From: Candidatus Heimdallarchaeota archaeon
GTDB lineage: Archaea > Asgardarchaeota > Heimdallarchaeia > Hodarchaeales > Hodarchaeaceae
Reading direction: 5' to 3'
Assembly (NCBI GenBank): GCA_019057635.1
Contig: DXJL01000121.1
Coordinates: 1 to 16,637 of the forward strand
DNA: 16,637 nt
Below are positions 1 through 16,637 of this stretch, in pieces. Within the stretch, counting starts at the first letter, position 1. Each line of letters begins with the position of its first letter. A program made the translations under genes and the position numbers. Below the pieces are notes generated by a model, which did no database searches, was not told the origin of the DNA, and worked only from the letters and a program-made list of their open reading frames with translations.

Positions 1-294
1 ATCACTTGATTTACCAAGACGATAAGATGCCTCAATTTTGCATAATAACAGATCTATAGCATTTAAACTTTGACCATACTTTTCTAGAATTTTGTCGATT
101 TCTTCTCTGGCCTTCTTATAATTTCCCTGTCGTATGTATAAGGTATTTATTAGCAAATCAAAATTAAATTGTGTTTCTTGATCAATTGGAATGCTGGATT
201 TTTCTGCTTGAAGTAGATTCAGGGCTTCTGTAAATCCTCCAGTTAACATGAGGGTCTTTGCTCGATTTAAAGAATCCTGATTATTTTTGGTCAA
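1..294 (-). CDS. TPR-repeat-like protein, 5' part (continues off the left edge); not in the ORF track
   Basis: Manual translation from TTG at 294: MTKNNQDSLNRAKTLMLTGGFTEALNLLQ...LYIRQGNYKKAREEIDKILEKY...LCKIEASYRLGKSSD. This is 98 open codons with TPR-like patterns (G-FTEAL, LY..QGNYKKA). A TTTATATA box lies about 24 nt upstream. Confidence 0.75.
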   Translation of the reverse strand, partial: MTKNNQDSLNRAKTLMLTGGFTEALNLLQAEKSSIPIDQETQFNFDLLINTLYIRQGNYKKAREEIDKILEKYGQSLNAIDLLLCKIEASYRLGKSSD

Positions 295-317
295 AGTTAT
301 GGAACAACACCAGAGTC

Positions 318-325
318 TATATAAA
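318..325 (-). promoter_or_regulatory. Putative TATA box (TTTATATA) for the TPR gene, likely a leaderless transcript
   Basis: Matches the archaeal TATA consensus about 24 nt upstream of the TTG at 294. The overlapping T-run on the minus strand could also terminate the ExoIII transcript. Confidence 0.45.
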
Positions 326-368
326 AAAAAATTATATGACAAATAAGTATTTTAAGGTAATGGTACAA

Positions 369-1136: not shown

Positions 1137-1189
1137 TAGAAACACCTAAAGTTATCTATTCAGTTATGAAAGTTTTTGGGATAATGTTT

Positions 1190-1200
1190 GTATAAATAAT
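1190..1200. promoter_or_regulatory. Possible TATA element in the divergent xth / CoA-transferase promoter
   Basis: TATAAATA at 1191-1198 reads TATA-like on both strands and lies about 55 nt from each start codon. Confidence 0.35.
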
Positions 1201-1253
1201 TCTATGATTCGATTTATTCAACAAATTCAAGATAATATGGTGTTGGAGCAAAT

Positions 1254-2093
1254 ATGGTTGTTATCGGTACGATAGAAAATCTTGTTAAGAAGGTAATTAC
1301 GCCTGATATTAAAATTTCCTTTGGAGGGGCAGCATTATTCCTGAAACCTATGGAAGTAGTACGAGAAATCATACGTCAAGAAATCAAGGATTTAATTATC
1401 TACACATTGATCGGTGATCTTGACATTGATCTTCTGTTAGGAGTTAAGGCCATCAAAGAGCTGCACTCAAGTTATGTAGGATTGCCTATGATTGGAATGG
1501 CACGACACTTTCGGAAGGCCATGGAAAAAGAACAAAGTGTCGATTTCTATGAATGGACAGAACTAAGTATGGTTAGAGCATTTCAAGCGGGAGCAATGGG
1601 GACTCCTGCAATAATGTTACGATCATTACTTGGATCAGATTTGGTTAAATTACGGGAAGATTTTGAAGAAGTAACATATAGAGGGATGAAGTACATTCAG
1701 GTCCCTGCTATAACCCCTGATCTGGCAATAGTTCACGCTTATGCTGCAGATCAAAATGGTAATGTGTTTTATCCGAAACATCATGCCTTAGATGAATTTT
1801 CTACTCTTCCAGCTCAATGTGCGAAACAATTGTTTGTATCTGTTGAAAGAATGATAACAAATGAAGAAGGTAGAGAGCTAATACAGCAAGGACAATCTAC
1901 AATGTTTTCATCCATTGACGTAGATTTTGTTGTTGAAGCACCAAAAGGAGCTTGGCCATCTGGCTTTCCCCCATTTTATGCTAGTGATATGGGTCATATT
2001 ATGACCTATTCTGGGATGGCTAATATGCCCGAAACATTTGACATGTACCTCCGGGAGTATGTTTTTGGAAAGTCACAGGAGGCAGTCCAATGA
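1254..2093 (+). CDS. Family I CoA-transferase-fold protein, alpha subunit (GctA/IpdA-like)
   Basis: Motifs ISFGG, P(MEVVREIIRQ)..KDL, DLLLG, AGAMGTP..RSLLGSDL, VPAITPDLAIVHA..AD..GN, SVE, VD.VVEAPKGAWP and Y..D..H. ATGA overlap with the next gene. Confidence 0.9.
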   Translation: MVVIGTIENLVKKVITPDIKISFGGAALFLKPMEVVREIIRQEIKDLIIYTLIGDLDIDLLLGVKAIKELHSSYVGLPMIGMARHFRKAMEKEQSVDFYEWTELSMVRAFQAGAMGTPAIMLRSLLGSDLVKLREDFEEVTYRGMKYIQVPAITPDLAIVHAYAADQNGNVFYPKHHALDEFSTLPAQCAKQLFVSVERMITNEEGRELIQQGQSTMFSSIDVDFVVEAPKGAWPSGFPPFYASDMGHIMTYSGMANMPETFDMYLREYVFGKSQEAVQ

Positions 2094-2902
2094 GCAAGAG
2101 CACTGATTACGAACCAATCGATTTAATCGTAATATCATTAGCACGTGAAATTAACGACTCCGAATCCTGTTATACTGGAATAGCAATACCCTCTGCAGTT
2201 GTTGCAGTTCAACTTGCACGTATGACGCATGCGCCAAATCTTCAATTCTTTTATGGAGGTTATTGGATTAATCCTGATCTGGATGTTGATCTATTTACCA
2301 TTATGACTGATACCGAAGCATTTGTAGAGTCAATATCAAAAGCCCAAGGTTTTTCGCACTTAGTCCAACTTTATCAGTACTGGGAGGGGCCAAAACATAC
2401 ACTTTCTTTTGGAATCATCCGCCCAGCTCAAATCGACCAATTTGGAAATATTAATAATAGTGTAATAGGCGACCCACATCATCCCAAATTTCGTTTTCCA
2501 GGTGGCGCGGCTGCTGGTGATATAATTAATACTTGTTCCCGCGTGATAGCTTATGTTCCCCGTCACGATGTTAGAACGTTTGTACCGGAAGTTGATTTTA
2601 TCACTGGAAGAGGGAGCTCTCCAAAGTGGAGAAAAGATGTCGGATTGACCGATTATCAAGGAATTAAGACTGTGGTAACAGATCTAGCAATTTTAGAATT
2701 TCACCCATCTAGTGGAAAGATGTGTGTACGCTCAATTCACGAATTTTCAACTATAGATGAGGTTCAGGAGAATACAGGATTCGATTTAGAGATTCCTAAA
2801 GATATTCCAACTACTCGAGCCCCAACCAAAGAAGAGCTGGATATATTACAATCTAAAGCTGATCCCTTATCTATTCGTAACTTTGATTCACGTAACAGGT
2901 AG
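2090..2902 (+). CDS. Family I CoA-transferase-fold protein, beta subunit (GctB/IpdB-like); canonical catalytic Glu appears absent
   Basis: Motifs LAR.THAPNL, AQID.FGNIN.S.IG, RFPGG, H..RTFV..VDFITG, VVTDLA, S.H...T.DEVQENTGF and PT.EEL..L...DP. AGGAGG SD at 2077-2082; translationally coupled to the alpha subunit. Confidence 0.9.
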   Translation: MSKSTDYEPIDLIVISLAREINDSESCYTGIAIPSAVVAVQLARMTHAPNLQFFYGGYWINPDLDVDLFTIMTDTEAFVESISKAQGFSHLVQLYQYWEGPKHTLSFGIIRPAQIDQFGNINNSVIGDPHHPKFRFPGGAAAGDIINTCSRVIAYVPRHDVRTFVPEVDFITGRGSSPKWRKDVGLTDYQGIKTVVTDLAILEFHPSSGKMCVRSIHEFSTIDEVQENTGFDLEIPKDIPTTRAPTKEELDILQSKADPLSIRNFDSRNR

Positions 2903-2972
2903 TAAATTAAGAGCAAGATTAAAAGCGTTAGTTAGTCCTATTTAGCAAATTCACCCAGAATTAGGTGTATAA

Positions 2973-4244
2973 ATGGAACCTGTTATTACTCGTGCTCCTG
3001 TTTCGTATAATCGTGCAACTTGGGCAGCTGGATTAGCAACATTGTTTGCAAATCTCCCTCTTTTAATATATGGATTATATGTGAACATATTTTTAACAAC
3101 GGATTTATTAACAGTCATTCTTATAGTTACAATAATTGGAACTCTGCGGAATATACTCCAAATTTTCCTACGCATCCCGCTTGGAGAATTATCTCAGATA
3201 ATCGGCCGAAAACCGTTAATTGTTATGGGCCATTTTAGTTATACTCTTGCACTGTTCTTGATGTCTATCGCGACTGATTGGAAACTCGTTATTCTAAGTA
3301 CTGCATTTATTGGTATTGGGATGTCGTTATTTTGGCCATCAATCTTTGGCTATCTTGGGGATGTCGATATCGATCGTATGGGCGAATCACAAGGAAGAAT
3401 TTTTAGACAGAGTGATATAGGATCGATTCTTGGTGCAATTTTCGCTTTTTATCTTCTGGATAATTTACAGTTTTCACTTCAAGAACTATTTGGAGCAATA
3501 GCGATAATTTCATTTATCACTGGTATAGTGACTGTTCTTTTATTACCCGAATCATTGACGAAAGAAAATCGAAAATCCGTTGACAACGTTCCAAAAGCAC
3601 TTCTAAATTCCTGGTCAACAATGACCAAATCATTAAAAGAAATGAGCATGACGAATCAATTATGGCAAGTGTATTTTTTTCATTTCATTCTAGCGTTTAT
3701 AGAATTTACTACAAGCTATTATGTTCCACTAATTATAATTTCCAAAGGATTTACAAATGCTGATGTCTCAGCGATTTGGCTATGGTCATTAATACTGATT
3801 TTTTGGATAAAACCATACTTAGGAAGGTTAACCGATAGGTTTGAATTTGTTTCAGCGATTACTGTAACTTTAATGATAACTTGTGTGACGGTACTTGGTT
3901 ATGTATTCATTAATGATTTTATCCTACTTATTGGAGCATATATTTTAGTAAATAGTTCTATTCTGACTTCTTATATCGCAGCAAATGGTGAAACGGCACG
4001 AAGAGCACCAATTGAACATCGTGGTGTAGCCTTAGGTGTTTTTGGTGTCTATGTCTCACTTGGAAGAACAACATCAACGCTAGTCTTAGGGCCAATCTGG
4101 GAAATTTTCAATTTAACTACAGTTTTTGTGTTTACATCTGTTCTTATTTTTTGCTTGATTTTCCTTCTTCGTAGAGTAATAAATAGAAATCACAACGGAT
4201 CTAGTTTGAAAAAGAAGTTGTACTTGGATTTTGAGAAAAAATGA
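2973..4244 (+). CDS. Major facilitator superfamily transporter
   Basis: About 12 hydrophobic segments. MFS motif A variants GELSQIIGRK and GRLTDRFE, plus APIEHRGVALG. AGGTG SD at 2963-2967. Confidence 0.93.
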   Translation: MEPVITRAPVSYNRATWAAGLATLFANLPLLIYGLYVNIFLTTDLLTVILIVTIIGTLRNILQIFLRIPLGELSQIIGRKPLIVMGHFSYTLALFLMSIATDWKLVILSTAFIGIGMSLFWPSIFGYLGDVDIDRMGESQGRIFRQSDIGSILGAIFAFYLLDNLQFSLQELFGAIAIISFITGIVTVLLLPESLTKENRKSVDNVPKALLNSWSTMTKSLKEMSMTNQLWQVYFFHFILAFIEFTTSYYVPLIIISKGFTNADVSAIWLWSLILIFWIKPYLGRLTDRFEFVSAITVTLMITCVTVLGYVFINDFILLIGAYILVNSSILTSYIAANGETARRAPIEHRGVALGVFGVYVSLGRTTSTLVLGPIWEIFNLTTVFVFTSVLIFCLIFLLRRVINRNHNGSSLKKKLYLDFEKK

Positions 4245-4255
4245 AATTTTAAATT

Positions 4256-4288
4256 ATTTTTATATATTTAATTTTTCCCTTTTTTTTA
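4256..4288 (+). terminator. Oligo-T archaeal-type terminator region after the MFS gene
   Basis: Several T-runs, including T8 ending at 4287, in the short convergent gap between the MFS gene and lrpA. Confidence 0.5.
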
Positions 4289-4303
4289 GGTTTGAAAATG
4301 TTA

Positions 4304-4771
4304 TTATTTTAATTTTTGAGTAACCGTTGCGGGACAGATTTTTGTGATTCCAGGTAATTTTTCCAATTTTTCAATAAAACTATCTAAATGATCATTGTTT
4401 TTGAACCAGCATTCCATTAAAAAGTCGTGATCTAAACTCGTCTGAAAGATACTTCTAACTTCAGGCCATGCCTTAACTTCCTCTAAAGCTTGACGATATA
4501 AAACGGCATCAGCATCAAATCCAATAAATGAAGATATTTCGAAACCCAACTTTCTGGGATCAATTTCTATTGTAAATCTCTTAATTATTCCTTCTTTACG
4601 GAGCTTATTTACTCTCTTACGAACAGCAGTATCGGAGACATGAAATATATCCGCTAATTGTTTCCAACTACGACTAGAATCTTGTACCAAGATATCCAAC
4701 AAGTCTTCGATAACTATGAGTCCTTTATGTTCTTTATTTTCCGTTGCATGGGGCATATTAAACTGATCCAA
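4304..4771 (-). CDS. lrpA: Lrp/AsnC family regulator, Pyrococcus LrpA-like (start could be the ATG at 4756)
   Basis: wHTH L..DS.RS..QLA..F.VSDTAVRKRV..L..EGII..FTI.IDP.KLG and RAM domain DHDF...W....LEKLPGITKICPA...KLK closely follow the P. furiosus LrpA pattern. Confidence 0.88.
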   Translation of the reverse strand: MDQFNMPHATENKEHKGLIVIEDLLDILVQDSSRSWKQLADIFHVSDTAVRKRVNKLRKEGIIKRFTIEIDPRKLGFEISSFIGFDADAVLYRQALEEVKAWPEVRSIFQTSLDHDFLMECWFKNNDHLDSFIEKLEKLPGITKICPATVTQKLK

Positions 4772-4820
4772 TTGAGAAGGTTCATGTTTCGATATGTTGA
4801 ATGCGCAATAAATAGATATA

Positions 4821-4837
4821 GGTTCGAGATCCGAACC
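4821..4837. promoter_or_regulatory. Palindrome GGTTCG-N5-CGAACC, candidate LrpA operator
   Basis: Perfect 6-bp GC-rich inverted repeat in the AT-rich lrpA/ferritin divergent spacer. A further GGTTC half-site lies at 4779-4783. Confidence 0.6.
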
Positions 4838-4954
4838 ATGATGTACTAAAGTCTCTGAAAAAAACAGCAGTTAGATATCTTCTTATGCTAACAAAAAGCA
4901 TAATGATTACTATCAACCGTTGAAACATAAAAATTCCTTTTAGGATGTATCCAA

Positions 4955-5458
4955 ATGGCTTTAATTAGTGAAAAATTTAATGATGCGTTAAACGCACAAA
5001 TTCAAGAAGAATTATATTCTGCTTATCTTTATCTAGGAATGTCTTACTGGTTAAAAGAGCACAATTACAATAATTTAGGTGAATGGTATTTCATTCAGTA
5101 CAATGAAGAATTAGCCCATGCTTACAAATTTATGGATTATATCGTTGAGACAGGCGGTAGTGTTAAGCTATTAGCACTAGATTCACCAAAAATTGATTGG
5201 AAAAATGTCGAAGAAATTGTAAATGCGGCTTATGGACATGAGCAACATATTACTGGAAAGATCAATGACTTAGTCATTCTTGCCGAAGAATTAAAAGAAT
5301 TTGCTCCCCGTGAACTTCTCCAATGGTTTATTTCCGAGCAGATTGAAGAAGAAGCATCTTCTAGTGAGCTAGTTAATCGTCAAAAAGAATTCCACAATGA
5401 TATGTTATTCGATCATCACACCCATCGCGTTAGCGGATCAACAACATCAGAAGAGTAA
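4955..5458 (+). CDS. ftnA: Non-heme (prokaryotic) ferritin
   Basis: LN.QI.EELYSAYLY..MS, EELAHA.KF.DY, HEQHIT..IN.L and LQWFISEQIEEE supply the full ferroxidase-centre pattern; 167 aa. Confidence 0.95.
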   Translation: MALISEKFNDALNAQIQEELYSAYLYLGMSYWLKEHNYNNLGEWYFIQYNEELAHAYKFMDYIVETGGSVKLLALDSPKIDWKNVEEIVNAAYGHEQHITGKINDLVILAEELKEFAPRELLQWFISEQIEEEASSSELVNRQKEFHNDMLFDHHTHRVSGSTTSEE

Positions 5459-5489
5459 ATCTTCATACACTGACTTAAATCCTAAGTTA

Positions 5490-5509
5490 GTTTTTGTCTC
5501 TTTTTTTTT
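5490..5509 (+). terminator. Oligo-T terminator after ferritin
   Basis: T5 and T9 tracts about 30-50 nt after the stop, in the convergent gap with the helicase. Confidence 0.5.
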
Positions 5510-5521
5510 AACCTGGGTTCA

Positions 5522-7717
5522 TCATTCATATAAGAAGAGTTTGATATCATCTACGAGTTTATTTAACGCTCTTTTTTCGACTCTGGGGAGTAACATATCT
5601 TGAACATGTGGTTCGATCACATCATCGATACTGCGCGCCTCTGCAACTTCGTACTCATATTTTAGTTCCATTGGATCGATTACTAGTTCAAAGAGCTTCG
5701 CCACTTTACCGGGACGAGTCGCTCTCCCAACTCTTTGGATTTGTTCTCGCCGATTTTTTGTTCCAGAAACGATTATTATTGTATCTGCTGGGGCATCGAA
5801 TCCTTCATTAAGCATTTTTACGAGAATAAGGGTATTTATCTCCCTATGTCGAAATTTATCGAGAAGAATATTGAATTCTTTATCATTTAGAACCGTTTCT
5901 CCTGTTAATAATGTACTAGCGATTTTTCGCTCTTTTAGAAACTTGTGTATTGCCTTTGCGTGATTAATTCGACTTGTGAAGACAAGTGTCTGTGAAGTTA
6001 ATGGGGACTCCAGTAGTTTGTGTATGGCAAATAGCTTATACCGAGCTTCTCGTGATACTTTGCCGTGAGATGACTTTCCTTTTTGGGTGATAGTGGTTTT
6101 TTCTTCTGACGTTAAGGGTATGTAAATTCTTTCTGAGTAAATTGGAGCAATGAATCCCTCACGAGCTAATAATCCATAATTAATCTTGTGTATGATCGGC
6201 CCCATAGTAGCGACTACTAGACTTGAATGTAATGTCTTTTCGATGGTCGCACTGAGAGCCATTCGCCGAGGTATCTCTAGATCTACGGCTATGTGCCGAA
6301 ACGTTTCTGCCTGGATATGATGTGATTCATCGGCTATTAATAAGCCAAATTTATCTGTAAAAAATCCAATTGTATCTTTGACTAAAAGCTTATCACGGGA
6401 AACTTTTTCAAGTTCCTTCTGTTCTAATGCATGAAAATCTTGTAAGTATTGGGCAAGTAATTGAAATGTTGAGATTACGATCTGATATTGGCGAAATGCT
6501 TTCTTCTGGCCTGTAAAAATTCCTATTTCGGATGGTTCTATTCCTATAAATTGACCAATTTGACTAATCCATTGATCGACTAAGGCAAGATTAGGAACAA
6601 GTATCAGGGTCCGCTGTTGAACTTGTCTTATGGCATCAATTCCAATTATTGTCTTACCAGCACCAGTTGGTAACTGTATTGTCCCGAATTCCTGGTTTTC
6701 TACCCATTTCTCTATTCCAGCTTGTTGGTATGACCGCAATTCATAGTTGTGTTGCATTTCTGTCTTCCAAACTTTCTTATCAAGTTTTGGAGTGAATTGA
6801 GCGTATTGTAAGTCGAAAAGTGTATTCGTTTTGGATTCTTTGATGCTCTTTTCCACCATCCGCCAAAAATGATTTGCTCGGAATGCGGCCCAAAACGCCA
6901 CTTCTATCTCTCGTTCCCCTACTTGAGTAATACACGTCAAGTAGTCCGCATTCGGATCGTCTTCCGATCTTATCGCCATATACCGAGTAAAAATATCGAA
7001 TAATGTGTGAAACCAAGTATTAAAAGCTTTATTCCATTTAATCCTTAATTTATTCTCCACCGACTCTACAATAAGTGTATATTCTTGATGGCCTGTTGTT
7101 GAAAGCGATTGTAATTTTTCTTTCGCCCCTGGACTATATTTTATTGTTACTCCTGTTCTCTGCAAGAGCTGAATATCTTCCTGTACAAGATGTGGGAATT
7201 GTAGAATGAATTTTGTTGGTCTATGAGTCCGCTCATGTTCCCAATAGCTATTATGTTTTCGCCAATTGCGTTCCCAAATCCGGAATTGCTCTCCTACCCA
7301 CGAGAAATAAAAGAATTTTCTATCATATTCTTCCGACCCCTCCTCTTTTTTTAAATATTCAAAGTAATCTTCAACGTTCAGACTTCGTGACCGCTCTTTC
7401 TTGTAATGAGAACGTCGGATTGGTATCCAAGCGTTTATCTTGGTAAATGGGTACCAGGGGAAATCGACTAAGAAGCTCAAGTCTTCTTGAATTGTTATTA
7501 TGAATTCATTCTTCTTTGAACTTAAAAACGCTATCCAGGCTTCCTCTGTAACTGAAGCACCTTTCAGACGTGGACTTTGCTTTCCCCGTAATCCAAGATT
7601 GGGAGAAGAACAAACATGTGTTCTTATATTATGACGACAAAGAGGAGCAGAGCATTTACTACAACGGTAAATTTTCGCCCCGGCTTCCGCACATTCATTA
7701 CAAATTTCTAAGCTAAT
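5522..7717 (-). CDS. XPB/ResIII-like superfamily 2 (DExH) helicase with a long N-terminal region and an N-terminal Cys/His zinc finger; probable non-canonical start (ORF track start 7480)
   Basis: Motifs LRSYQ (Q motif), LPTGAGKT, LVP...LVDQW, DESHH, ALSAT, LNEGFD.P and QRVGR.TRP. The frame stays open upstream of 7480 to a TGA at 7729-7727 and encodes CNEC..CSKC....CRHNIRTHVC. The helicase call is firm; the start position is less certain. Confidence 0.8.
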   Translation of the reverse strand: MSLEICNECAEAGAKIYRCSKCSAPLCRHNIRTHVCSSPNLGLRGKQSPRLKGASVTEEAWIAFLSSKKNEFIITIQEDLSFLVDFPWYPFTKINAWIPIRRSHYKKERSRSLNVEDYFEYLKKEEGSEEYDRKFFYFSWVGEQFRIWERNWRKHNSYWEHERTHRPTKFILQFPHLVQEDIQLLQRTGVTIKYSPGAKEKLQSLSTTGHQEYTLIVESVENKLRIKWNKAFNTWFHTLFDIFTRYMAIRSEDDPNADYLTCITQVGEREIEVAFWAAFRANHFWRMVEKSIKESKTNTLFDLQYAQFTPKLDKKVWKTEMQHNYELRSYQQAGIEKWVENQEFGTIQLPTGAGKTIIGIDAIRQVQQRTLILVPNLALVDQWISQIGQFIGIEPSEIGIFTGQKKAFRQYQIVISTFQLLAQYLQDFHALEQKELEKVSRDKLLVKDTIGFFTDKFGLLIADESHHIQAETFRHIAVDLEIPRRMALSATIEKTLHSSLVVATMGPIIHKINYGLLAREGFIAPIYSERIYIPLTSEEKTTITQKGKSSHGKVSREARYKLFAIHKLLESPLTSQTLVFTSRINHAKAIHKFLKERKIASTLLTGETVLNDKEFNILLDKFRHREINTLILVKMLNEGFDAPADTIIIVSGTKNRREQIQRVGRATRPGKVAKLFELVIDPMELKYEYEVAEARSIDDVIEPHVQDMLLPRVEKRALNKLVDDIKLFLYE

Positions 7718-7980
7718 GATAAGCCCTCATACGGCTGGTTAGAGATTTTTTTGGTTAAATTGAATCGCGTTGAATATAGATTATCAGGGAGATGTCCCTT
7801 AGTATTAAAAAATGATTAGTGACGACAATTTTTCGATTATGGAAAAAATCCCTCTATTTGCTGTTTTCTTATGGGAAAATTAAATATTTTTCGTTATTTT
7901 TCTCGGTTCAGGAGTATGTGTTATGAATACCAAATGGATTTCTGATTTTTTCCATTAAAAATTCATCAAATCAGAATTGC

Positions 7981-10197
7981 TTATTTTTTCGGAAATATAA
8001 GAACAAATTTAGTCCCTGATCCCTTTCCTTCACTATAAGCTTTTATTGATCCTCCATGTGAGTTCATAATTTCTCTAGAAAGATAAAGGCCAATTCCAGT
8101 ACCATGTGTAGAATATTCTGTCTCAATCGTGACGAACTGATCAAAAATAATCTCGAGATCTGTTGGCTCAATACCTGCCCCTTTATCTATAATATCGACC
8201 TCTAGGCTTTTCTCCTCATTTCTTATGTCGATCTGTATTTCCCTATTATCTTGGGGACTATTTTTAATTGCGTTATCAATCACATTATCAAAAACTTGTT
8301 GAATTCGATCACTGTCAAGGGAAATATTTTGGGGAATACCTTCGGCAAAATTAACAAACTTGAATTCAAATTGATTCTCCAATAAGTTTCGATAGGGGGT
8401 TAATATTTTGATCATACACTCTTTGAAATCGACATTTTGGAGATTAATTTCGAATAATCCCCTTTCAAGTTGAGTAATGGCTTGACTATCTGAGATTAAC
8501 CTTTCTAATCGTTTTAGGTTTTTAGTAATTATCGAAAATATATCTTCTTTCTGCGTAACTGTCATTGCATCCATTTTCTTTTGTAAAAACTCATTGTATC
8601 CGAAAAGTACGGTTAAGGGAGTTCTTAATTCATGATTGACCATTCTAATAAAATTATCTCGTTTCTTCTGCAGCTTGATTCTAATCTCTTCTGCTTTCTT
8701 CCTTTCTTCAACGTCTCTAAAGATGCCAATATGATAAGTCATATCTTCTAGGATTACTGGAGAAACATTAACGTCTGCATGAAAAACGGATCCATCTTTT
8801 TTCGTGAGGGGGATTTCTGAAGCGTAAGTTGAATTTTGTCTATCAATTACAGCTGCAGCTTCTTTAAAGTTTTTATAGTTCTGTGTAGGACGAATATCTG
8901 TTAAAAACAATTTTTGACCCTCATCTTTCGTATAGCCTAGCATATCACAAAAGGATTGATTCGCTAGGAATACTTTTCCATTTTCTGGATTAGCTAGTAT
9001 GATTCCATCAGTCACATTTTCGAAAATAGTTTTGAAACGAGTTTCTGAATCTCTTAATTCTTTCTCAGACATTTTAAGATCAGTGATATCAAGGACTGTT
9101 ACGGTTGCTCTAGCGGATTTACCTTTATCAATATCCCACTTTGCTCGTAATAAAGCCCAAAGTTTTTTCCCTGATTTTGTAATGATCTGATATTCGACTG
9201 TATCCTTCATTTCCTCATTAGCCATTATCTTTGCTAATCGGTCCAACCAAATGTCTTTACTTTCATCTGTTAACATTTCATATAAGTTTAAGGAACGAGC
9301 TTCTTCTTCTGTGACTTCAAATAGCTCCAATAATAGATCGTTTGCAAATAAAATATGAACATCTCCAGTCAGGAAATCCATTTCTATTTCATAAATTCCT
9401 GTGGGTGCTTTTTTAACAAGCTGTCGATATCGCTGTTCGCTTTCACGAAGGTCCATTTCTATTTTCTTCATATCTGATATGTCAAGCATTACGCCACGTA
9501 ATCCGACAGGCTTTTTATCACGCAGTATGGGACTCGAGTAAATGAGAACAGGTAACGTACTTCCATCTTTATGCAACGCGTTATACTCATGATCTGTGAA
9601 TAATTCTCCTTGCATCACTTTACCAATATTCTGTCGGATACGATTAAGATCTTCGGGAATGAATAATTGGGTGACGCTTATCCCAGCTGTTAGTTCATCT
9701 TGCGTATAACCGAATGTATTGAGACCCTTTTGATTTGCATATAGAATTTTTCCAGTAGTATCCAGTTCAAACACGGTTTGTGGTAAGAGCTCCGCTAATT
9801 CTTTGAAATCCTTTTCACTGTATCTTAATTGTGTATCAAGTGCTTCAGCATGAATAAATTGTCGATAAAAACCATAAACCCCTAATATCGCTCCTAATAA
9901 GAAGAAAATCATGTCTATATCATCAATAGGGTCAGTAAAAATATAACTGTTCAAATTAGGAGCGAACGCTGTGGAAAAATCTTGCAACACATCAAAAAAA
10001 ACAGGAATAGTTAATATCAGTATTCCAGCAAATGCCCATGGACCCGCTCCACGCTTTAAAGCTTGATTTCTATTCAGATTGAGGTAGATAACAACTACGA
10101 GGGTACAAAGTAGAATTAGAGTAGCGAATCCAAAGAAAAATTCAAAGTAATCAAAGAAATTTGATGCTAAGCTTGTTATCAGAGTAATTTGAACCAT
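7981..10197 (-). CDS. Membrane-anchored multi-PAS sensor histidine kinase
   Basis: Three N-terminal hydrophobic segments and three PAS/PAC repeats each introduced by SE..[FY] and closed by D[IV][STE]..K. H-box NHELRTPL, N-box QVFDNVIDNAIK, D.G.GI, IF.QF, GTGIGL and S.G.G.GT.F. Confidence 0.95.
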   Translation of the reverse strand: MVQITLITSLASNFFDYFEFFFGFATLILLCTLVVVIYLNLNRNQALKRGAGPWAFAGILILTIPVFFDVLQDFSTAFAPNLNSYIFTDPIDDIDMIFFLLGAILGVYGFYRQFIHAEALDTQLRYSEKDFKELAELLPQTVFELDTTGKILYANQKGLNTFGYTQDELTAGISVTQLFIPEDLNRIRQNIGKVMQGELFTDHEYNALHKDGSTLPVLIYSSPILRDKKPVGLRGVMLDISDMKKIEMDLRESEQRYRQLVKKAPTGIYEIEMDFLTGDVHILFANDLLLELFEVTEEEARSLNLYEMLTDESKDIWLDRLAKIMANEEMKDTVEYQIITKSGKKLWALLRAKWDIDKGKSARATVTVLDITDLKMSEKELRDSETRFKTIFENVTDGIILANPENGKVFLANQSFCDMLGYTKDEGQKLFLTDIRPTQNYKNFKEAAAVIDRQNSTYASEIPLTKKDGSVFHADVNVSPVILEDMTYHIGIFRDVEERKKAEEIRIKLQKKRDNFIRMVNHELRTPLTVLFGYNEFLQKKMDAMTVTQKEDIFSIITKNLKRLERLISDSQAITQLERGLFEINLQNVDFKECMIKILTPYRNLLENQFEFKFVNFAEGIPQNISLDSDRIQQVFDNVIDNAIKNSPQDNREIQIDIRNEEKSLEVDIIDKGAGIEPTDLEIIFDQFVTIETEYSTHGTGIGLYLSREIMNSHGGSIKAYSEGKGSGTKFVLIFPKK

Positions 10198-10334
10198 TTT
10201 TGAGCTGTTCCCTCAATTAGGAGTTAAGATTAACATTTACTACAGTTTTAGATTCGTATGTGAGGTCGACTACAAGTTAAGAGATATCTTTCTTCCTCAG
10301 TGTTACTATTTATTTACTTCGAATTACTTATTCT

Positions 10335-11312
10335 TCACCTTTCGTTCTCTGTTTGCAAAGTGGTACCACACGTTTCACAAAAACGATCCTCTTTCAAAAC
10401 CATTTCCCCACACTGAGAACAATATCGCACAAAATCATCAATTTGAACATCTGGAACTGTCATAAATTGATCTAGGGAAGATTGTGCTCCTTCACCCGCT
10501 CGTTTTCGAACAGTTGCCATGTTTACACTTTCTAGTCTCTTAAGCGGTTGTTTTAACATGATAGCTAATTGACGAGCGTTGGCAGGAGCAGACCCTGATG
10601 GATGATTATTGAAATAGGTATAGATCTCCTTAGTCTGGTCTAATAATGAATCAATTTTTTCCTTCCAGACAAGTAATTCCTTCCGAGAATACAAATATCG
10701 GTACCATAGTTTTAAGCCATGACCATGGAGTCGTATGTATGAAAAATCAGCTGTAACCGGTGTGATAGGGGGTAACAGTGGTTCATCAACGATGCAGAAA
10801 GCTACGTTGAATTTCGAAAGTAGATCAACGGTCTGGTCAAGATGCTTACACCAGCTCATCTCACGAAATTCAACAGCCAGTTTTAATTCCGAGGGCCAGT
10901 GTCGGAGAAACACTCCCAGCGCTCGGCGATTTTCATCTGAGAATTTTGGGGGTAGCTGTAACAGTGCAGGTCCAATTTTTCTACGTAGTCCGCTCGACAT
11001 GGTATCTAGAAACCGATCAAGATCCGATTGAAAATCTACGAGCTTTTTCTCATGCGTAATCACTTTAGGGATTTTAAATGCAAATAAAAAGTTATTTGGA
11101 ACATGTTTTTCCCATCTTTGAACTACTCCGAGTCGGGGAAAATGATAAAAGCTGGTGTTTATCTCTACAGTGGAAAAAACTTCACTGTACCAGGCAAGGC
11201 GTTGTTGTTCTGCCAGTATAGACGGATAAAAAGGAATTTCTGTTTTCTCGTTTTTCGCCTGCCAATCTGAATAGCCAAAACCCGAAGTTCCAATTAACAC
11301 TTTAGCTGTCAT
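10335..11312 (-). CDS. DUF72 (YecE-like) protein with a C-terminal PIP-like motif and a 4-Cys zinc ribbon
   Basis: DUF72 signatures IGTSGF.Y.DW, FYP, Y...F.TVEIN.SFY..P, F.F.FK.P..ITH, LLQLPP.F, AVEFR..SW, Y.RLHG, Y.YS..EL and YFNN....A..NA. The tail contains QSSLDQFM and CSQC-x10-CETC. Confidence 0.92.
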   Translation of the reverse strand: MTAKVLIGTSGFGYSDWQAKNEKTEIPFYPSILAEQQRLAWYSEVFSTVEINTSFYHFPRLGVVQRWEKHVPNNFLFAFKIPKVITHEKKLVDFQSDLDRFLDTMSSGLRRKIGPALLQLPPKFSDENRRALGVFLRHWPSELKLAVEFREMSWCKHLDQTVDLLSKFNVAFCIVDEPLLPPITPVTADFSYIRLHGHGLKLWYRYLYSRKELLVWKEKIDSLLDQTKEIYTYFNNHPSGSAPANARQLAIMLKQPLKRLESVNMATVRKRAGEGAQSSLDQFMTVPDVQIDDFVRYCSQCGEMVLKEDRFCETCGTTLQTENER

Positions 11313-11372
11313 TTACTTCGAACTCCGTGTCGCAAGACTCCATTGCCAACAAACTGTATCTTTCCCATTTAC

Positions 11373-11580
11373 CAATTTCTGATTTGCCTCTAGGATTTAT
11401 CACAGATTTCCGATTAAAAATATTTAGATGACGGACTAAATTCTAGAGAATGAATTGCTATTCTTATCCTTGCCTCTGATTTTGAATATGAAAAAGGGAT
11501 CCTGAAATTGTAAATGCAAGACACAAACCTAATTTAGTGGAAATTGAGATTTACTAAAAACACTCATTTTCTTCATTTTC
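11373..11580. promoter_or_regulatory. Cluster of five CAWTTTC motifs in the divergent DUF72 / RadA-like promoter
   Basis: CAATTTC at 11373-79 (+), 11504-10 (-) and 11540-46 (-); CATTTTC at 11565-71 (+) and 11574-80 (+). Includes the inverted pair GAAATTGAG-N14-CTCATTTTC (11540-11571). Confidence 0.45.
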
Positions 11581-11642
11581 ACTGACGTCTCTGACTGTAT
11601 CAGAGTAATTAGATCGGATCGAAGTGAACTATCTGGTTACAA

Positions 11643-12440
11643 ATGGGTACAGATGCGAGTTCATGGACTTCAGCTTGGGAATTACAGCAAGAAGAGCGGT
11701 ATAAATCAGGTCTTTTAGCTCTTGATGCGTTGATTCCAGAAGGGATGTTACCAGGTAGCTTGATCCTACTACAAGGCGACATTAACCGAAAATTATTGCG
11801 TCATTTAGTGACAAAGCTCTCCGTGGGTTTTCTGACAACTAATGAGCCTGCAGAGCTGGCATTTGTTGATGGAGCTAACTTATTTCCCTACTATGAAATA
11901 GCGACTGAAGCCCGAAGACATGGTTATGATCCGCTGGTCATTTTGGATCGTATTCAGCTATCACGAGCATTTAATTTTCATCAAATGACCGAAATAATTA
12001 CCAAAAGGCTTCCTGCTCTTCTTGAAAGGAAGAAACAGCTCAGGATAGTGTTTGTTCCTCAGATTTCGTCGCAATACCTTTCCACGGAAGCATTACAATA
12101 TTTAGAATATGCAAAGCTATCCGTAGCAGAAGGAGCACTATCTGAATTAACTCAAGCAGTTGGTACCCTAAAGAGCCTAGCCTTACAGCATAATTTACTG
12201 GTTATCATGACGGCCGCTAGTGCCACAGGATCAAAAACCAAGGGCTTGGGAGGGACTTATCTTACTCATTCCGCTTCCTCGGTTATAAGAATGACTACTT
12301 CAACACAAAGCTCTGCCAAAGAGTATGATATTCACTTTTCATTACAGAAAGATCCAGCTCGACCTGTCATTCAGCTGACCCACTCACATCGACAAAAAAA
12401 ACCTGCAAACAATCAAACGTTACTTAATCGTTATTGGTGA
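11643..12440 (+). CDS. Catalytically inactive RadA/Rad51-fold paralog (ImuA-like accessory) with a C-terminal PIP box
   Basis: RecA-core landmarks SG..ALD.L..G...GSL..L.G, FVD..N.F, LDRI..SRAFN..Q, LA..HNL.V..T and LGG.YL.H.AS..I. Walker A is degenerate (QGDINRK, no GKT) and the Walker B Asp is replaced (IVFVPQ). No HhH domain. Ends QTLLNRYW. Confidence 0.82.
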   Translation: MGTDASSWTSAWELQQEERYKSGLLALDALIPEGMLPGSLILLQGDINRKLLRHLVTKLSVGFLTTNEPAELAFVDGANLFPYYEIATEARRHGYDPLVILDRIQLSRAFNFHQMTEIITKRLPALLERKKQLRIVFVPQISSQYLSTEALQYLEYAKLSVAEGALSELTQAVGTLKSLALQHNLLVIMTAASATGSKTKGLGGTYLTHSASSVIRMTTSTQSSAKEYDIHFSLQKDPARPVIQLTHSHRQKKPANNQTLLNRYW

Positions 12441-12444
12441 TAAT

Positions 12445-12723
12445 ATGGGCCGAACATTACCTTCCTATCGAATGGTATTAGAACATGAGCGAGCACTGTG
12501 GATAAAACACTTTGCTAAACGTCTACGAGAACCGTACCGAACAAGCTTTGACCACCTTTGGGAGAAGGCGTTTCAGCTTGCTGATGCTTCTTCTGCAAAC
12601 ACCAGGCCAGTAGCCTTAGACAATATTCTGATGAGTATGGTAGTGGCCCAACAGACAGAAATTCAGCGTTTGCGTAAAGAAATTACTACCTTGCAACAGC
12701 AAGTGAATGACATAGGTAATTGA
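12445..12723 (+). CDS. Small alpha-helical PolB2-associated protein (arCOG07300-like) with a C-terminal coiled coil
   Basis: MGRTLPSYR......W...F...LR.......F..L pattern typical of the small gene found next to archaeal PolB2. Gaps to its neighbours are 4 nt and 10 nt. Heptad tail QQTEIQRLRKEITTLQQQV. Confidence 0.8.
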   Translation: MGRTLPSYRMVLEHERALWIKHFAKRLREPYRTSFDHLWEKAFQLADASSANTRPVALDNILMSMVVAQQTEIQRLRKEITTLQQQVNDIGN

Positions 12724-12733
12724 CCTGATTCTC

Positions 12734-14965
12734 ATGGTTTTCCTACGTGCTTGGCTTCATGATGTGGCAGCAACCGATTGGGGAGTAAACACCTGCTGGA
12801 TTACTCGGACAAGAGGAATCGAAGCTTTTTATCCGCTGACGGCAGAGTTTTTCCTAGCTAGAACAGATCAAGAAACACGAAATCGTGTACTAAGTCATCC
12901 AGAAGTAGAGTCAGTCGAAGAAGCTTCCAAGTATGTATCTATCCACGACTGGCAAGCCAGTCCAGTGTTACGTATTCGAGTTAACCCAACTAAGATACGT
13001 TCTACTTTCGAAGATTTACGGAAATATTGGGGCGAGTACCTATATAATGCCGATCTCAGCATTTATCAACAGTTTTGCTTTCAAACTGGGTTGTTTCCAT
13101 ATGTTTACGCTAGAATTGAAGTAACTAATGGTAGATTGCAAAAGAATTGGGAACTAATCGAGAATTATTTGCAGGCTGACTATCGTTCTGTGCCTTTCCG
13201 AACTCTCTGGATGCAACCATTCTTTGCAGAGCAGAATTTTTCACGCGGCCCGATAAAAGAAATACACCTCCGTCATTCGCTCAATAAGGAAGAAGAAGAA
13301 CCGATAATCTTTGCTGAAGAATCGGAAACAGAAACAATACGGGAGAGTATGATGTACCTAAACAAGGTTGATCCTGATATCCTTTTTACTTCAGGTGGGG
13401 ATACTTTTTTCCCAATCCTTGCCCAGCACGCGACGGATCAGGGGATTGGTTATCTTCATCCAGGAAGAGGGAAGCGTCGACTGTATAGTTATGTAAGAAA
13501 GCAAACACGACCTCGTGGTCATAGCTATATGTCGTACGGCCGAATTTTCTATTCGCAACACGGAAGCTACCTGGATGGTGGCCGACATCATTATGACGTA
13601 GGTAATTCCTTCATGTGGAAAGATGGCAATATCGATGGCATTCATGAGCTTGTCCGTTTAGGATGTTCTGATCCCCAACGTATTGCTCGAGGTACGATTG
13701 GGACTACATTGACTACGGTTCAAATGCGTACAGCTTATCGACGTAATATTCTGATTCCAGGACGAAAAGCTGATAGTGAAGATTTTCGGCCTGCGTGGTC
13801 AATGATGAGCGACGTGGGAGGGTTGGTGTTCTCCCCCCAAGTGGGATTTCATCGAAATCTCGTCGAATTGGATTTCCTGTCCATGTACCCATCAATAATG
13901 ACATACAAAAACGTAAGCCCTGATACCATTAATTGTGCGTGTTGTAAGAATGAACAACGACAACCTGTACCAGAAACAGACCATTATATTTGTACACGAC
14001 GCCCAGGCCTAGTCAGTCTAGCACTTAAGAATATTCTTGAACGACGCGCGTATTTTAAAAGTAAACGATCCGAAGAATGTTATGACAGACGTCAGAAAGT
14101 CCTTAAATGGTTACTTGTTTGTTCATTCGGATATCAAGGGTATAGAAATGCTCGATTTGGACGAATTGAAGCACATGAAGCTATATCGGCATATGGAAGA
14201 GAGGCGTTAACCCGTGCGAATCAAATTGCGACGGAGTATGGTCTTCAAGTGGTTGCAGGCATAGTTGATTCGATTTGGCTAAAAAATCCTGATGACACAC
14301 CAATTGAACAATCACTGATCGACGAAATCTGTCAACGAATAGAAGCTGAGGTAAAACTACCCCTTGAACACGCCGCCAACTATCACTGGATCGTGTTTCT
14401 TCCACGTCGTCATGAACCAACAATTGGTGTTCTCAATAGATATTATGGTCTAAAAACTGATGACTCCTATAAGATTCGTGGAATTGAGATCCGGCAATCT
14501 AGTAGTCCCTTATTTGTCAAAAAGCTTCAACGACAGCTCTTGAAGATTCTGTCTGCTGCACGCACTCATGAGCAATTTGAGGAATGTGCACAAAAAGCAA
14601 AGCGAGTGATGAGAAAATACTTAGCTGATCTAAAATCAGGTAATATTCCACTGAGTGATCTATTAGTGACCATTCGTCCTTCACGAGGCCCAGATGAATA
14701 TGTTAGCAATACACGTCAGGCCATTGCTGCCCGTCAACTGGCGGCCGCGGGAGTGAAGGTTGAAGCAGGTGTCAAGCTTAGCTATTTAATTCTCGATGCT
14801 TACGCGTCTGACCCTTCCAAACGTGTTAAAGTGACTCAACTTTTAACTGGTAAAGAGCAGTATGACTATCAGGAATATCGTAAACTGTGTATTCGTGCCT
14901 ATGAAGGCTTGATTCCTCCTGAAATGGAACCAAAACGACAAACAATTGAGGAATACCTTTCTTGA
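12734..14965 (+). CDS. polB2: Family B DNA polymerase of the PolB2/Dpo2 group (proofreading-deficient, damage-tolerance type)
   Basis: Motif A ELDFLSMYPSIM..N.SPDT; motif B RQ.VLKWLLVCSFGY.GY.NARFG.IE.HE.I; motif C altered from YGDTDS to GIVDSIW; K.RGIE.R. No recognisable ExoI D.E motif; only a DPDIL..GGD.F remnant. Confidence 0.93.
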   Translation: MVFLRAWLHDVAATDWGVNTCWITRTRGIEAFYPLTAEFFLARTDQETRNRVLSHPEVESVEEASKYVSIHDWQASPVLRIRVNPTKIRSTFEDLRKYWGEYLYNADLSIYQQFCFQTGLFPYVYARIEVTNGRLQKNWELIENYLQADYRSVPFRTLWMQPFFAEQNFSRGPIKEIHLRHSLNKEEEEPIIFAEESETETIRESMMYLNKVDPDILFTSGGDTFFPILAQHATDQGIGYLHPGRGKRRLYSYVRKQTRPRGHSYMSYGRIFYSQHGSYLDGGRHHYDVGNSFMWKDGNIDGIHELVRLGCSDPQRIARGTIGTTLTTVQMRTAYRRNILIPGRKADSEDFRPAWSMMSDVGGLVFSPQVGFHRNLVELDFLSMYPSIMTYKNVSPDTINCACCKNEQRQPVPETDHYICTRRPGLVSLALKNILERRAYFKSKRSEECYDRRQKVLKWLLVCSFGYQGYRNARFGRIEAHEAISAYGREALTRANQIATEYGLQVVAGIVDSIWLKNPDDTPIEQSLIDEICQRIEAEVKLPLEHAANYHWIVFLPRRHEPTIGVLNRYYGLKTDDSYKIRGIEIRQSSSPLFVKKLQRQLLKILSAARTHEQFEECAQKAKRVMRKYLADLKSGNIPLSDLLVTIRPSRGPDEYVSNTRQAIAARQLAAAGVKVEAGVKLSYLILDAYASDPSKRVKVTQLLTGKEQYDYQEYRKLCIRAYEGLIPPEMEPKRQTIEEYLS

Positions 14966-15129
14966 TAGAATTTCTTTAGAAAATATCTCGTATTCTGAAG
15001 GATATATCTTACTGTCCATGAATCAGAACAATCATTTTTTCCCTGTTCGAAAGTCTATTATAATGAATAGGAATGTAAACTAAGGGAAGTAGATTATTTC
15101 TGGTTTTATGCTAGTTTAAGCTGATTTAA

Positions 15130-16389
15130 ATGGCAAGTAAACGTTTTATTTTAATAAATACACCCCCAATAGCTGTAGGTGTTGGGTTTCTTCTCATACT
15201 CCTGATTCCGCAGGTAGCTATGGCAACGATAAATGAAGATATACCAGTTGATACTGAATATACTTCTGGGATAATTACTCAACAAGATACAACCATGAAA
15301 ATTTCTTATGCTTGGGTTAATTCTAATTCATCGGAATTATTATCAATCTCATTATTTGATGATATATACAAAGTAGCCCTCTTTCGTCCCTTTTTTGGCC
15401 AATCGTATGAGGTAGATGAGAGCTCCTTTTTTGTTGGAACCATCCTCACAGGTTTTGAATTATTTCAGGATAGTAACGGGAACAATGTTCTTGATCAAGC
15501 TGAGGAACTCAAATACTATATTATGCTAAATGCTTCTCAGGAATACATTTTACCTACAGTAGAGAAAACAATTATTGATAATATTACTCGTTATACTTGG
15601 AAAATTTGTTATCTAGAAATAGATGGGTTTTTCAATCCATATGAAGGGCTTTATAATGCAATAACAATTATAGAAAGTTTTAATCTATCTTATACATATG
15701 ACATCCATGAAAACTATACAGAATTGAAGTTAGCAATCGAAATGGGAGAATGGGATGCATACGAATTTGATTTTGATATCGGCACAGGTGGACTAACTCG
15801 AATAGCTGACATAGATTTAGACGATTATAGTCTATCATTGCTATTTGGTACAACGGTTAGTAGTGAAGAACCCTTTAAGTTAACAATGTACAATGGTTCA
15901 ACTGGACTAGAGGATTTACGTGTCGAAGTAAGTGGGATACCAATTTTTCAATCGTTATTTCAAGACACATACGATTTGGGTTTAAATGGATCTGCCTATC
16001 AAGCAACCACTACACCAGCGAGTGTGGATACATTATATGATGAGCAATTACAAGTCTGGGGTACTCCTGCAGCTTTTTACACCTGGTGGCAAAACTGGTT
16101 TCCCGCAATGAGTAATTTAACATCCGTTCCTGCAATTGAACTCGAGGAAGTTTCATTTCTCTATAGAATATGTTACCCAACTTGGGGTGGTGAACCTTTC
16201 AATCACGATCCGAGATATCGGGCCTTATTCGATGGTGAACTGAATCTCCCTCAAACAACAACTCCAACTTCAACCACAATTCCCCCCTCGACTACTACTA
16301 CGGTGGATATTACCTCAATAGAACTATCTGTCGGGTTTATCGCATTATTTCTACTTGCTATCCCCTTTACTCGGAAACGCAGGAACTAA
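15130..16389 (+). CDS. Secreted, C-terminally membrane-anchored acidic surface protein
   Basis: N-terminal signal peptide (basic, hydrophobic, AMA|T), Asp/Glu-rich beta-type body, DSNGNNVLD Ca-loop-like motif, several N-x-S/T sequons, Thr/Pro linker, TM helix and RKRRN tail. Confidence 0.85.
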   Translation: MASKRFILINTPPIAVGVGFLLILLIPQVAMATINEDIPVDTEYTSGIITQQDTTMKISYAWVNSNSSELLSISLFDDIYKVALFRPFFGQSYEVDESSFFVGTILTGFELFQDSNGNNVLDQAEELKYYIMLNASQEYILPTVEKTIIDNITRYTWKICYLEIDGFFNPYEGLYNAITIIESFNLSYTYDIHENYTELKLAIEMGEWDAYEFDFDIGTGGLTRIADIDLDDYSLSLLFGTTVSSEEPFKLTMYNGSTGLEDLRVEVSGIPIFQSLFQDTYDLGLNGSAYQATTTPASVDTLYDEQLQVWGTPAAFYTWWQNWFPAMSNLTSVPAIELEEVSFLYRICYPTWGGEPFNHDPRYRALFDGELNLPQTTTPTSTTIPPSTTTTVDITSIELSVGFIALFLLAIPFTRKRRN

Positions 16390-16465
16390 CTGTTCCTGAA
16401 CATTTTTTCACAAGATTTTCCGCAATAAATGATTCCACGTAATTTTTATAGAATAGGTTAGTCGA

Positions 16466-16637
16466 TTAGCGCTTTTTTCTCCGAGCATAAAACAAATACT
16501 CATCCTTGCCCTGAATAAGTTCAATATCTTGATCATCTGTCAACCCCATTTGTGAAATAAACTCTTTTGGTATTAATAATTTACTTTCTTTAATTTTAGA
16601 GGTGAATTTTTCTGCTCCTTTGAATGATGGAGCAGGA
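16466..16637 (-). CDS. 3' end of a protein with an AbrB/MazE/SpoVT-like swapped-hairpin domain (starts beyond the right edge); not in the ORF track
   Basis: Manual translation ...PAPSFKGAEKFTSKIKESKLLIPKEFISQMGLTDDQDIELIQGKDEYLFYARRKKR*. It fits the AbrB pattern SK[IV]....L.IPKE....[LM]GL...D.[IV]E. Confidence 0.6.
   Translation of the reverse strand, partial: PAPSFKGAEKFTSKIKESKLLIPKEFISQMGLTDDQDIELIQGKDEYLFYARRKKR

Follow-up and report, generated by a model that had tools for sequence, protein, structure and literature searches.

A putative RadA-docking motif at the N-terminus of an Asgard (Hodarchaeales-type) iRadA, the inactivated RadA subunit of the PolB2 mutasome

PolB2 is needed for damage-induced mutagenesis in Sulfolobus, and its holoenzyme is so far known from computation alone, as a model; how archaeal translesion synthesis (TLS) polymerases find their substrates, and how the choice between recombination and mutagenic bypass is made at a stalled fork, are poorly understood. 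The DNA considered here is a stretch of 16,637 nucleotides from Candidatus Heimdallarchaeota archaeon (GenBank assembly GCA_019057635.1, contig DXJL01000121.1, positions 1 to 16,637 of the forward strand; hereafter the window), and the gene in question, at 11643-12440, encodes a catalytically dead relative of the recombinase RadA that stands in an operon with PolB2.

The association of PolB2 with an inactivated RadA (iRadA) and with arCOG07300 was first noted by Makarova, Krupovic and Koonin in 2014 (PMC4104785), and in 2025 Timinskas, Timinskas and Venclovas modelled iRadA, PPB2 and PolB2 as a heteropentameric 'mutasome' (PMC11791011), the published operon arCOGs being arCOG07763/04294/08101 for iRadA-PPB2-PolB2 (PMC4104785, PMC11791011). 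In the sections of PMC11791011 that concern us, the MGRT arm of PPB2 is already described (section 3.3.1); a loop of PolB2 binds iRadA in the manner of a RadA/Rad51 oligomerisation motif, with iRadA as the acceptor (section 3.3.2); PCNA-binding motifs are placed at the C-terminus of many iRadA proteins (section 3.3.3); DUF72 genes are reported as enriched beside polB2 (section 3.1); and the mutasome is explicitly compared with Pol V. Where it treats the mutasome, a 2026 review repeats this published model only (PMC13324097). A bacterial parallel is offered by ImuA, a dead RecA homologue in the M. xanthus mutasome that is described as binding RecA1 and inhibiting both its binding to DNA and the strand exchange that it carries out (bioRxiv 10.1101/2020.12.14.422803).

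Comparison with the published PolB2 mutasomes shows that the present locus shares their gene order, the MGRT of PPB2, an IxD-type motif C in PolB2, the RecA fold and lost ATPase motifs of iRadA, its lack of an HhH N-domain, its C-terminal clamp motif, the DUF72 neighbour and an FxxA-like loop in PolB2. Because the order iRadA-PPB2 (MGRT)-PolB2 (IVD) with an upstream DUF72 gene goes together with a RecA fold and lost ATPase motifs, the gene at 11643-12440 is almost certainly that for iRadA, an ATPase-dead member of the RadA family that forms part of a PolB2 translesion mutasome, from a Hodarchaeales-type Asgard archaeon. An earlier note on this DNA, made from its letters, had proposed a dead RadA paralogue bridging RadA filaments to PCNA; since the protein is iRadA, a new kind of RadA-to-PCNA bridge protein was dropped as a candidate, and what that note says of a PCNA-interacting peptide (PIP) box, of a bridge to PCNA and of a likeness to Pol V is, given the content of PMC11791011, already published and not new, as is the DUF72 neighbour. 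The difference lies at the other end of the protein: as published, iRadA is treated only as an acceptor and is said to lack an oligomerisation domain, whereas here iRadA retains a donor motif of RadA, as in a quarter to a half of the family's clusters. Literature searches turned up no report of FxxA on iRadA; the main text of PMC11791011, whose supplementary alignment may show the motif, has 0 occurrences of the term 'FxxA'. Conservation together with one in-silico prediction suggests that an N-terminal RadA donor motif is a new feature of this known family. The relevant elements of the gene are:

11643-12440, forward strand: iRadA open reading frame (ORF), stop codon included; 265 residues, assigned as the ATPase-dead RadA-family subunit of the PolB2 mutasome (Pfam, NCBIfam, hhalign, AlphaFold2, Foldseek)
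11664-11675, forward strand: WTSA (residues 8-11), FxxA-type polymerisation (donor) motif on the N-terminal arm, with a short helix at 11-15 after it
11772-11792, forward strand: QGDINRK (residues 44-50), degenerate P-loop without the Walker A GK[ST]
11859-11897, forward strand: AFVDGANLFPYYE, strand and loop matching RadA YIDTEGTFRPE; one half of the presumed acceptor groove, with the catalytic Glu replaced by Ala78
11865-11879, forward strand: VDGAN, within the AFVDGANLFPYYE segment, standing where RadA has the catalytic Glu
11940-11984, forward strand: ILDRIQLSRAFNFHQ, edge strand matching RadA VLKNIMHGRAYNSDHQ; the other half of the presumed acceptor groove
12048-12062, forward strand: VFVPQ, degenerate Walker B, with Asp replaced by Pro139 on alignment to RadA
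12414-12437, forward strand: QTLLNRYW, C-terminal PIP box, the last eight residues of iRadA

The window holds 28 ORFs of at least 60 amino acids, and every position that the earlier note had given, those of WTSA and QGDINRK among them, proved exact on re-location. In-frame stops lie no more than six codons upstream of the iRadA ATG; the short N-terminal arm is thus no artefact of start choice, and a wrong start codon is ruled out. Named orthologues come from metagenome-assembled genomes labelled Hodarchaeales, Heimdallarchaeota, Hermodarchaeota, Promethearchaeota and Thorarchaeota (54 matches among 2165 candidates), 29 of which were aligned after exclusion of fragments and near-duplicates. Of these 29, 27 carry the pattern [FW]x[ST]A, down to 40% identity, as WTSA, WNSA, WSSA, FTSA, FISA, FVSA or FDTA, the two exceptions being a protein whose called start lies past the arm and one with FVDG; it also occurs in all 13 same-genus operon loci that include the iRadA N-terminus. 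The 7-16 residues preceding the motif vary freely in both sequence and length. By our rough estimate a single [FW]xxA would arise by chance in a 20-residue arm in about 7% of cases, and retention in 27 of 29 orthologues amid varying flanks indicates that [FW]x[ST]A is more than chance and is kept by selection. Alignment by hhalign sets iRadA W8..A11 on RadA F106..A109 (FVSA), of which F106 and A109 are invariant in all 24 RadA sequences compared. WTSA is therefore a conserved, positionally homologous FxxA-type motif, as the earlier note had supposed, and the absence of conservation that would have spoken against that note's idea was not what the orthologues revealed.

The motif can be followed beyond the close orthologues. 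A wide profile search of 1.84 billion representatives returned 516 matches at an expectation value (E) <= 1e-3, and arm counts were taken from 150 of the 516, among which 102 were scored as having no Walker A and an arm long enough; those dropped from the 147 new representatives had an intact Walker A, a profile match starting past position 45 or, in 12 cases, too short an N-terminus. The arm window before the core is approximate in these counts, and the representatives come without genomic context, such that some may be RadA paralogues other than iRadA. A strict [FWY]xxA was found in the arm of 23 of the 102 distant representatives (shuffles: 9.1 +/- 2.7, maximum 19 in 1000), and a relaxed form that also admits L, I or M at position 1 in 51 (shuffles: 27.5 +/- 4.1, maximum 39). 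On these counts the arm motif is a patchy yet enriched feature of the family, not peculiar to this gene. A homologue search with a family alignment gave 76 proteins, for which the only names to appear were Asgard ones, apart from one protein that its source calls RadB. Inspection of the wider set also showed a Walker-A-less subgroup (P0087, P0095, P0106, P0112, P0119, P0146, P0167, P0186) whose N-terminus is extended by about 100 residues with a CxxC...CPxCG zinc ribbon; several of its members carry F[EQR][RT]A after the ribbon, directly before the core.

Published peptide data bear on the chemistry of the motif. By isothermal titration calorimetry on humanised RadA, WHTA is reported to bind about three times as well as FHTA (93 versus 280 uM), which shows that Trp is tolerated at the first position; position 3 is usually Ser/Thr; Ala is needed at position 4, where a change to Gly loses binding; Pro abolishes binding at position 2 and improves it at position 3; and FxxA peptides block RAD51 oligomerisation (PMC4855620). 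Both WTSA of iRadA and an FRPA sequence in PolB2 fit these rules, by which the motif is chemically competent.

The body of the protein is a RecA-type domain that has lost its active site. Family models recognise it faintly: Pfam Rad51 matches weakly (E 2.3e-5; score 24.2 bits, cut-off 22), the NCBIfam RadA and Dmc1 models match at E 1e-7 to 1e-6, far under their cut-offs (for RadA, E 2.1e-7 and 30.5 bits against 259), and among solved structures the RadA cores of P. furiosus come closest in sequence, with E ~1e-4. An AlphaFold2 model made with the 29-orthologue alignment has a mean predicted local distance difference test score (pLDDT) of 80.3 and a predicted template modelling (pTM) score of 0.79; residues 1-10, at pLDDT ~52, form a flexible arm, and a short helix follows at 11-15. 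Foldseek comparison of this model with the PDB places Dmc1, RadA and RAD51 chains at the top (E ~1e-15, template modelling score 0.62-0.71), such that a structure search for which the earlier note had named a non-RecA fold as the adverse outcome returned the RecA/Rad51 fold instead; model and search together rule out a non-RecA fold. Profile alignment to the host RadA family (24 sequences, from this genome and its relatives; hhalign probability 97.4%, E 1.4e-11, 199 columns) sets iRadA G45-DINRK-LL on RadA G147-EFRTG-KT, with K-L-L in place of GK[ST], A78 on the catalytic E187 and P139 on D248 of Walker B, and so bears out the loss of P-loop, catalytic Glu and Walker B that had been read from the letters. 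The alignment begins at RadA residue 98, and Pfam gives no HhH match; the intact Walker A/B and HhH N-domain by which a RadA/Rad51 recombinase is recognised are accordingly both missing. Conservation in the family is highest in the groove segment AFVDGANLFPYYE, where F74, D76, G77, N79, F81 and P82 are invariant in the 29-orthologue alignment; within the edge strand ILDRIQLSRAFNFHQ, I104, R108, A109, F110, N111, H113 and Q114 are invariant among the same orthologues, R108 and F110 even across 70 distant family members.

The host genome offers several possible partners for the arm. Besides iRadA, and outside the window, a genome search located four strong full-length Rad51-family genes with intact P-loops (L001, L002, L003 and L004, on contigs C72, C68, C20 and C165). 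Two of these paralogues are very RAD51-like, with an FxxA motif (FVSA, FETA) and a GEFRTGKTQ P-loop; L003 and L004 have intact P-loops and no FxxA ('acceptor-only'). A weak sixth Rad51-family match lies at C165:25115-25615.

Co-folding was run with the core of the best RadA (the L001 protein, residues 117-361, its own FxxA removed; 24-row alignment) and full-length iRadA (29-row alignment). The pair scored 0.84, against 0.00 for the best of three controls, and passed a mark that 116 of 157 solved complexes but only 2 of 215 mismatched pairs attain, a calibration outside which our own alignments lie; contacts agree between the three runs to 88% or more, with a pLDDT of 79 or higher for the partner. 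At the lowest expected errors, iRadA residues 7-12 and 14-15 touch RadA 182-183, 190, 192 and 209-218, the lowest-error pairs being iRadA 8-12 with RadA 211-218, W8 also with I182, and A11 with P192. RadA F190 and P192 we take to be equivalent to the Ala pocket of human RAD51. By alignment on the YIDTEG and RAxN motifs, the counterparts of RadA I182 and G218 in human RAD51 are M158 and A192, both among the Phe-pocket residues listed in PMC4855620. The predicted arrangement has iRadA covering the ATP-site face of RadA (residues 149-161), and the groove segments of iRadA itself (73-85 and 100-114) lie outside the confident interface, such that PolB2 could bind iRadA at the same time. A co-fold with host RadA, which the earlier note had proposed as a check, thus passes with WTSA in the canonical groove, a result that may be a memory of solved complexes; we rejected the pass as a demonstration of binding and treat it as an in-silico prediction made where homologous complexes have already been solved.

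The next two genes follow iRadA on the same strand with gaps of 4 and 10 bases, and a DUF72 gene lies upstream:

12445-12723, forward strand: PPB2 (arCOG07300-type), a helical protein of 92 residues, with the conserved MGRT arm at its start (sequence, locus comparison)
12734-14965, forward strand: PolB2, a 743-residue family-B polymerase (Pfam DNA_pol_B E 1.5e-27; NCBIfam PRK05761-type models E ~1e-104)
13784-13795, forward strand: FRPA loop of PolB2 (residues 351-354), FxxA-like, the likely equivalent of the published iRadA-binding beta-alpha motif of PolB2
14261-14269, forward strand: motif C of PolB2, I-V-D instead of DxD (motif location)
14939-14959, forward strand: PIP-like tail of PolB2, QTIEEYL, with Q one position off (motif location)
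10335-11312, reverse strand: DUF72 protein with a C-terminal zinc ribbon, divergent from the operon (Pfam DUF72 E 1.6e-65, Zn_Ribbon_1 E 4.7e-6)

Our best reading is of iRadA as a two-ended adaptor, whose N-terminal arm would sit on RadA, whose own groove would take the FRPA of PolB2 and whose tail would hold PCNA; the RadA docking in this scheme is a prediction. As in the published model, the conserved groove of the iRadA core would receive the FxxA-like PolB2 loop, here FRPA, and a PPB2 trimer would complete the complex, which the C-terminal PIP box, plain in the sequence, would tether to PCNA. The step that we add is that the flexible arm (W8-T-S-A11 and its helix) may enter the Phe/Ala groove of host RadA as one RadA protomer engages the next. 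The oligomerisation surface of a RecA filament is described as exposed only on the 3'-end protomer (PMC6511836); by analogy, a free groove would be available only on the terminal protomer of a RadA filament (3'-proximal, were it to follow RecA), where iRadA would act as an additional, dead 'protomer'. PolB2 would be plugged into it and PCNA would lie on the duplex side, so that the extender polymerase could be brought to the junction of primer and template in a gap or D-loop coated with RadA; such a cap could also hold RadA in check, as ImuA is reported to do with RecA1. That the iRadA arm docks in filament fashion on a host RadA protomer is, from the conserved motif and the modelled complex, a tentative proposition that falls a little short of an even chance. 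The fuller scheme of a filament-end adaptor, with FxxA in the terminal RadA groove, PolB2 held by FRPA and PCNA by the tail, such that a RadA-coated gap or D-loop positions the extender polymerase at the primer end, is rather doubtful. Of the earlier note's suggestion that the protein caps or docks on RadA filaments, the conserved motif and one co-fold speak in favour, the family to which the protein belongs having been missed; nothing in the results supports its idea that the protein could deliver PCNA.

Several observations weigh against docking on RadA. The helix after the iRadA motif is four residues shorter than that of RadA in the hhalign alignment. The arm motif is not universal, being found in only 23 (strict) to 51 (relaxed) of the 102 distant representatives, and the iRadA of Haloferax volcanii pHV4 has no N-terminal arm at all; its absence from many lineages implies that the mutasome works without it there. 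In PMC11791011, the account of 40 modelled pentamers mentions no RadA contact, iRadA is described as having no N-terminal oligomerisation domain, and PolB2 with RadA scores poorly (section 3.3.2). Because solved RAD51/RadA filaments and BRC4 complexes exist, the co-fold pass may reflect the model's memory of them, and so likeness and not binding; the alignments were also unpaired, and therefore carry no co-evolution signal.

The same evidence must be set against other uses of the arm. It might serve the mutasome or the paralogues in place of the main recombinase, by engaging a second iRadA or one of the FxxA-less L003 and L004, or by packing on PolB2, PPB2 or DNA and so stabilising the complex. 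This is unlikely, even though iRadA retains a highly conserved groove of its own that could accept the arm of another iRadA, two of the four Walker-A-intact Rad51-family paralogues are acceptor-only, and the published pentamer models needed no RadA; the model in the same source fills the iRadA groove with the PolB2 loop and has one iRadA per complex (PMC11791011), and the co-fold put the arm confidently in the RadA groove, which is weak evidence here because the RadA core was the only partner offered. Alternatively, the arm might bind RadA as an anti-recombinase, in the manner of a BRC repeat or ImuA: it would cap or sequester RadA, stop its filaments from growing and so channel damaged gaps to PolB2 translesion synthesis in place of recombination, with no recruitment involved. 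FxxA peptides are reported to stop RAD51 oligomerisation (PMC4855620), M. xanthus ImuA to bind and inhibit RecA1 (bioRxiv 10.1101/2020.12.14.422803), and in the predicted complex iRadA lies over the ATP-site face of RadA (149-161); a stoichiometric cap made from one operon would, however, have to compete with an abundant recombinase, and the PIP tail and the link to PolB2 suggest localisation over titration, leaving this explanation improbable.

We consider it quite improbable that the motif is a leftover of the RadA ancestor that has no partner and is kept only for folding or solubility of the core. Its absence from many family members, the armless Haloferax protein included, and the low confidence of the arm in the monomer model are what such a relic would lead one to expect, but the motif persists in 27 of 29 orthologues to 40% identity amid freely varying flanks, exceeds shuffles in distant clusters, and is conserved at exactly the positions (aromatic, Ser/Thr, Ala) described as those used for groove binding (PMC4855620).

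Set beside known systems, the adaptor arrangement that we favour recalls Pol V, where, too, an oligomerisation contact like that in filaments joins a TLS polymerase to a RecA-family protomer, a sliding clamp takes part, and an arm of a small subunit lies near the active site. Pol V, however, takes active RecA from the filament, whereas the RecA-family subunit here is a dedicated dead paralogue and the polymerase is of family B, not Y; moreover, unlike in Pol V, the dead paralogue may in its turn dock at the end of the filament, and a relay of two steps would then lead from PolB2 to iRadA to RadA. ImuA, too, is a RecA-family protein without activity in a mutasome that damage induces; its partner binds it by an oligomerisation-like motif, and the reported binding of M. 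xanthus ImuA to active RecA1 parallels the proposed iRadA-RadA contact; it differs in being bacterial, in having a RecA-type and not a RadA-type interface, in being described as unable to self-associate, and in belonging to a mutasome with a family C polymerase, where a dead Y-family adaptor bears the clamp motif.

The motif itself resembles the FxxA of RAD51/RadA and the BRC repeats of BRCA2 in its order of aromatic residue, x, Ser/Thr and Ala, in the turn or helix that comes next, in its place ahead of the ATPase core (PMC4855620), in tolerating Trp at position 1 and in the groove predicted to receive it. It is unlike them in standing on a dead, HhH-less paralogue, in its helix shorter by four residues and in having no LFDE-type second module. 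Eukaryotic RAD51 paralogue complexes described as capping RAD51 filaments (PDB 9svx, 9zzr, 9q29) are RecA-fold, filament-end assemblies among the top structural matches of iRadA; the likeness is one of fold only, at 15-16% identity, and those paralogues bind ATP, promote recombination, are not polymerase subunits and have no PIP box. Were the filament-end adaptor correct, it would be a hard-wired archaeal equivalent of the way in which RecA* activates Pol V, and a prokaryotic forerunner of recombinase-paralogue capping in the archaeal lineage nearest eukaryotes. The gain is incremental, in that the family, the clamp motif and the Pol V analogy are in print; what a RadA-docking peptide on a dead-RadA subunit would supply is a simple hypothesis, testable by mutation, that links recombinase filament, clamp and polymerase, and in which the two halves of the RadA interface, donor and acceptor, are each reused on their own inside one operon.

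The putative clamp-binding end of iRadA is well conserved. The full PIP pattern Qxx[LIMV]xx[FYW][FYWLI] occurs in 17 of the 29 orthologues and its hydrophobic core in 28, so that the PIP box reported by the earlier note is real and conserved, and the tail would be expected to bind PCNA, for which the host genome has one gene (one PCNA_N match). PIP-like tails stand on both iRadA and PolB2 here and in same-genus relatives, an arrangement called rare in PMC11791011; in the relatives (loci L038-L047) the PolB2 tail reads, for example, TLDSFL, NLNQFF or KLDQFL. The DUF72 protein has a canonical PIP-like QSSLDQFM (10461-10484) between its TIM-barrel domain and its zinc ribbon, making, with QTLLNRYW of iRadA and QTIEEYL of PolB2, three clamp-type motifs in adjoining genes. 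In H. volcanii pHV4 (L067, NC_013966.1 53864-63408) iRadA ends in an LLDAW-type motif, and a TnpB-family gene lies between PPB2 and PolB2.

A survey of 81 whole genomes of the class found a PolB2-like match at E <= 1e-30 in 46, from which 30 loci were analysed. The order iRadA-PPB2-PolB2 is identical at 14 same-genus loci; at the 16 remaining, no iRadA was found within the short locus in 14, and two gave weak matches, one with LITA and one with no clear motif. PPB2 begins with MGRT in all 15 related loci where a homologue was found. FRPA of PolB2 directly precedes SDVGG, the region in which PMC11791011 puts the iRadA-binding motif, and across the 27 related loci that cover it the first residue of the motif is F (24 loci) or I (3) and the fourth is A (18), G (3) or S (6). 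A tblastn search with PolB2 against plasmids gave 112 records, haloarchaeal throughout among the matches listed.

Four same-genus genomes (loci L048-L051; G014, G008, G006, G009) have a PolB2 match split near residue 465 within one open frame of 1075-1288 residues, which suggests an in-frame insertion of ~530 residues, possibly an intein, that is not in the window's copy. Elsewhere in the window, an Exo_endo_phos family nuclease, presumably ExoIII/AP-endonuclease-like, is encoded at 369-1145 on the reverse strand, and a 652-residue ResIII/Helicase_C protein whose C-terminal helicase part matches ERCC3/RAD25/XPB at 5522-7480, also on the reverse strand.

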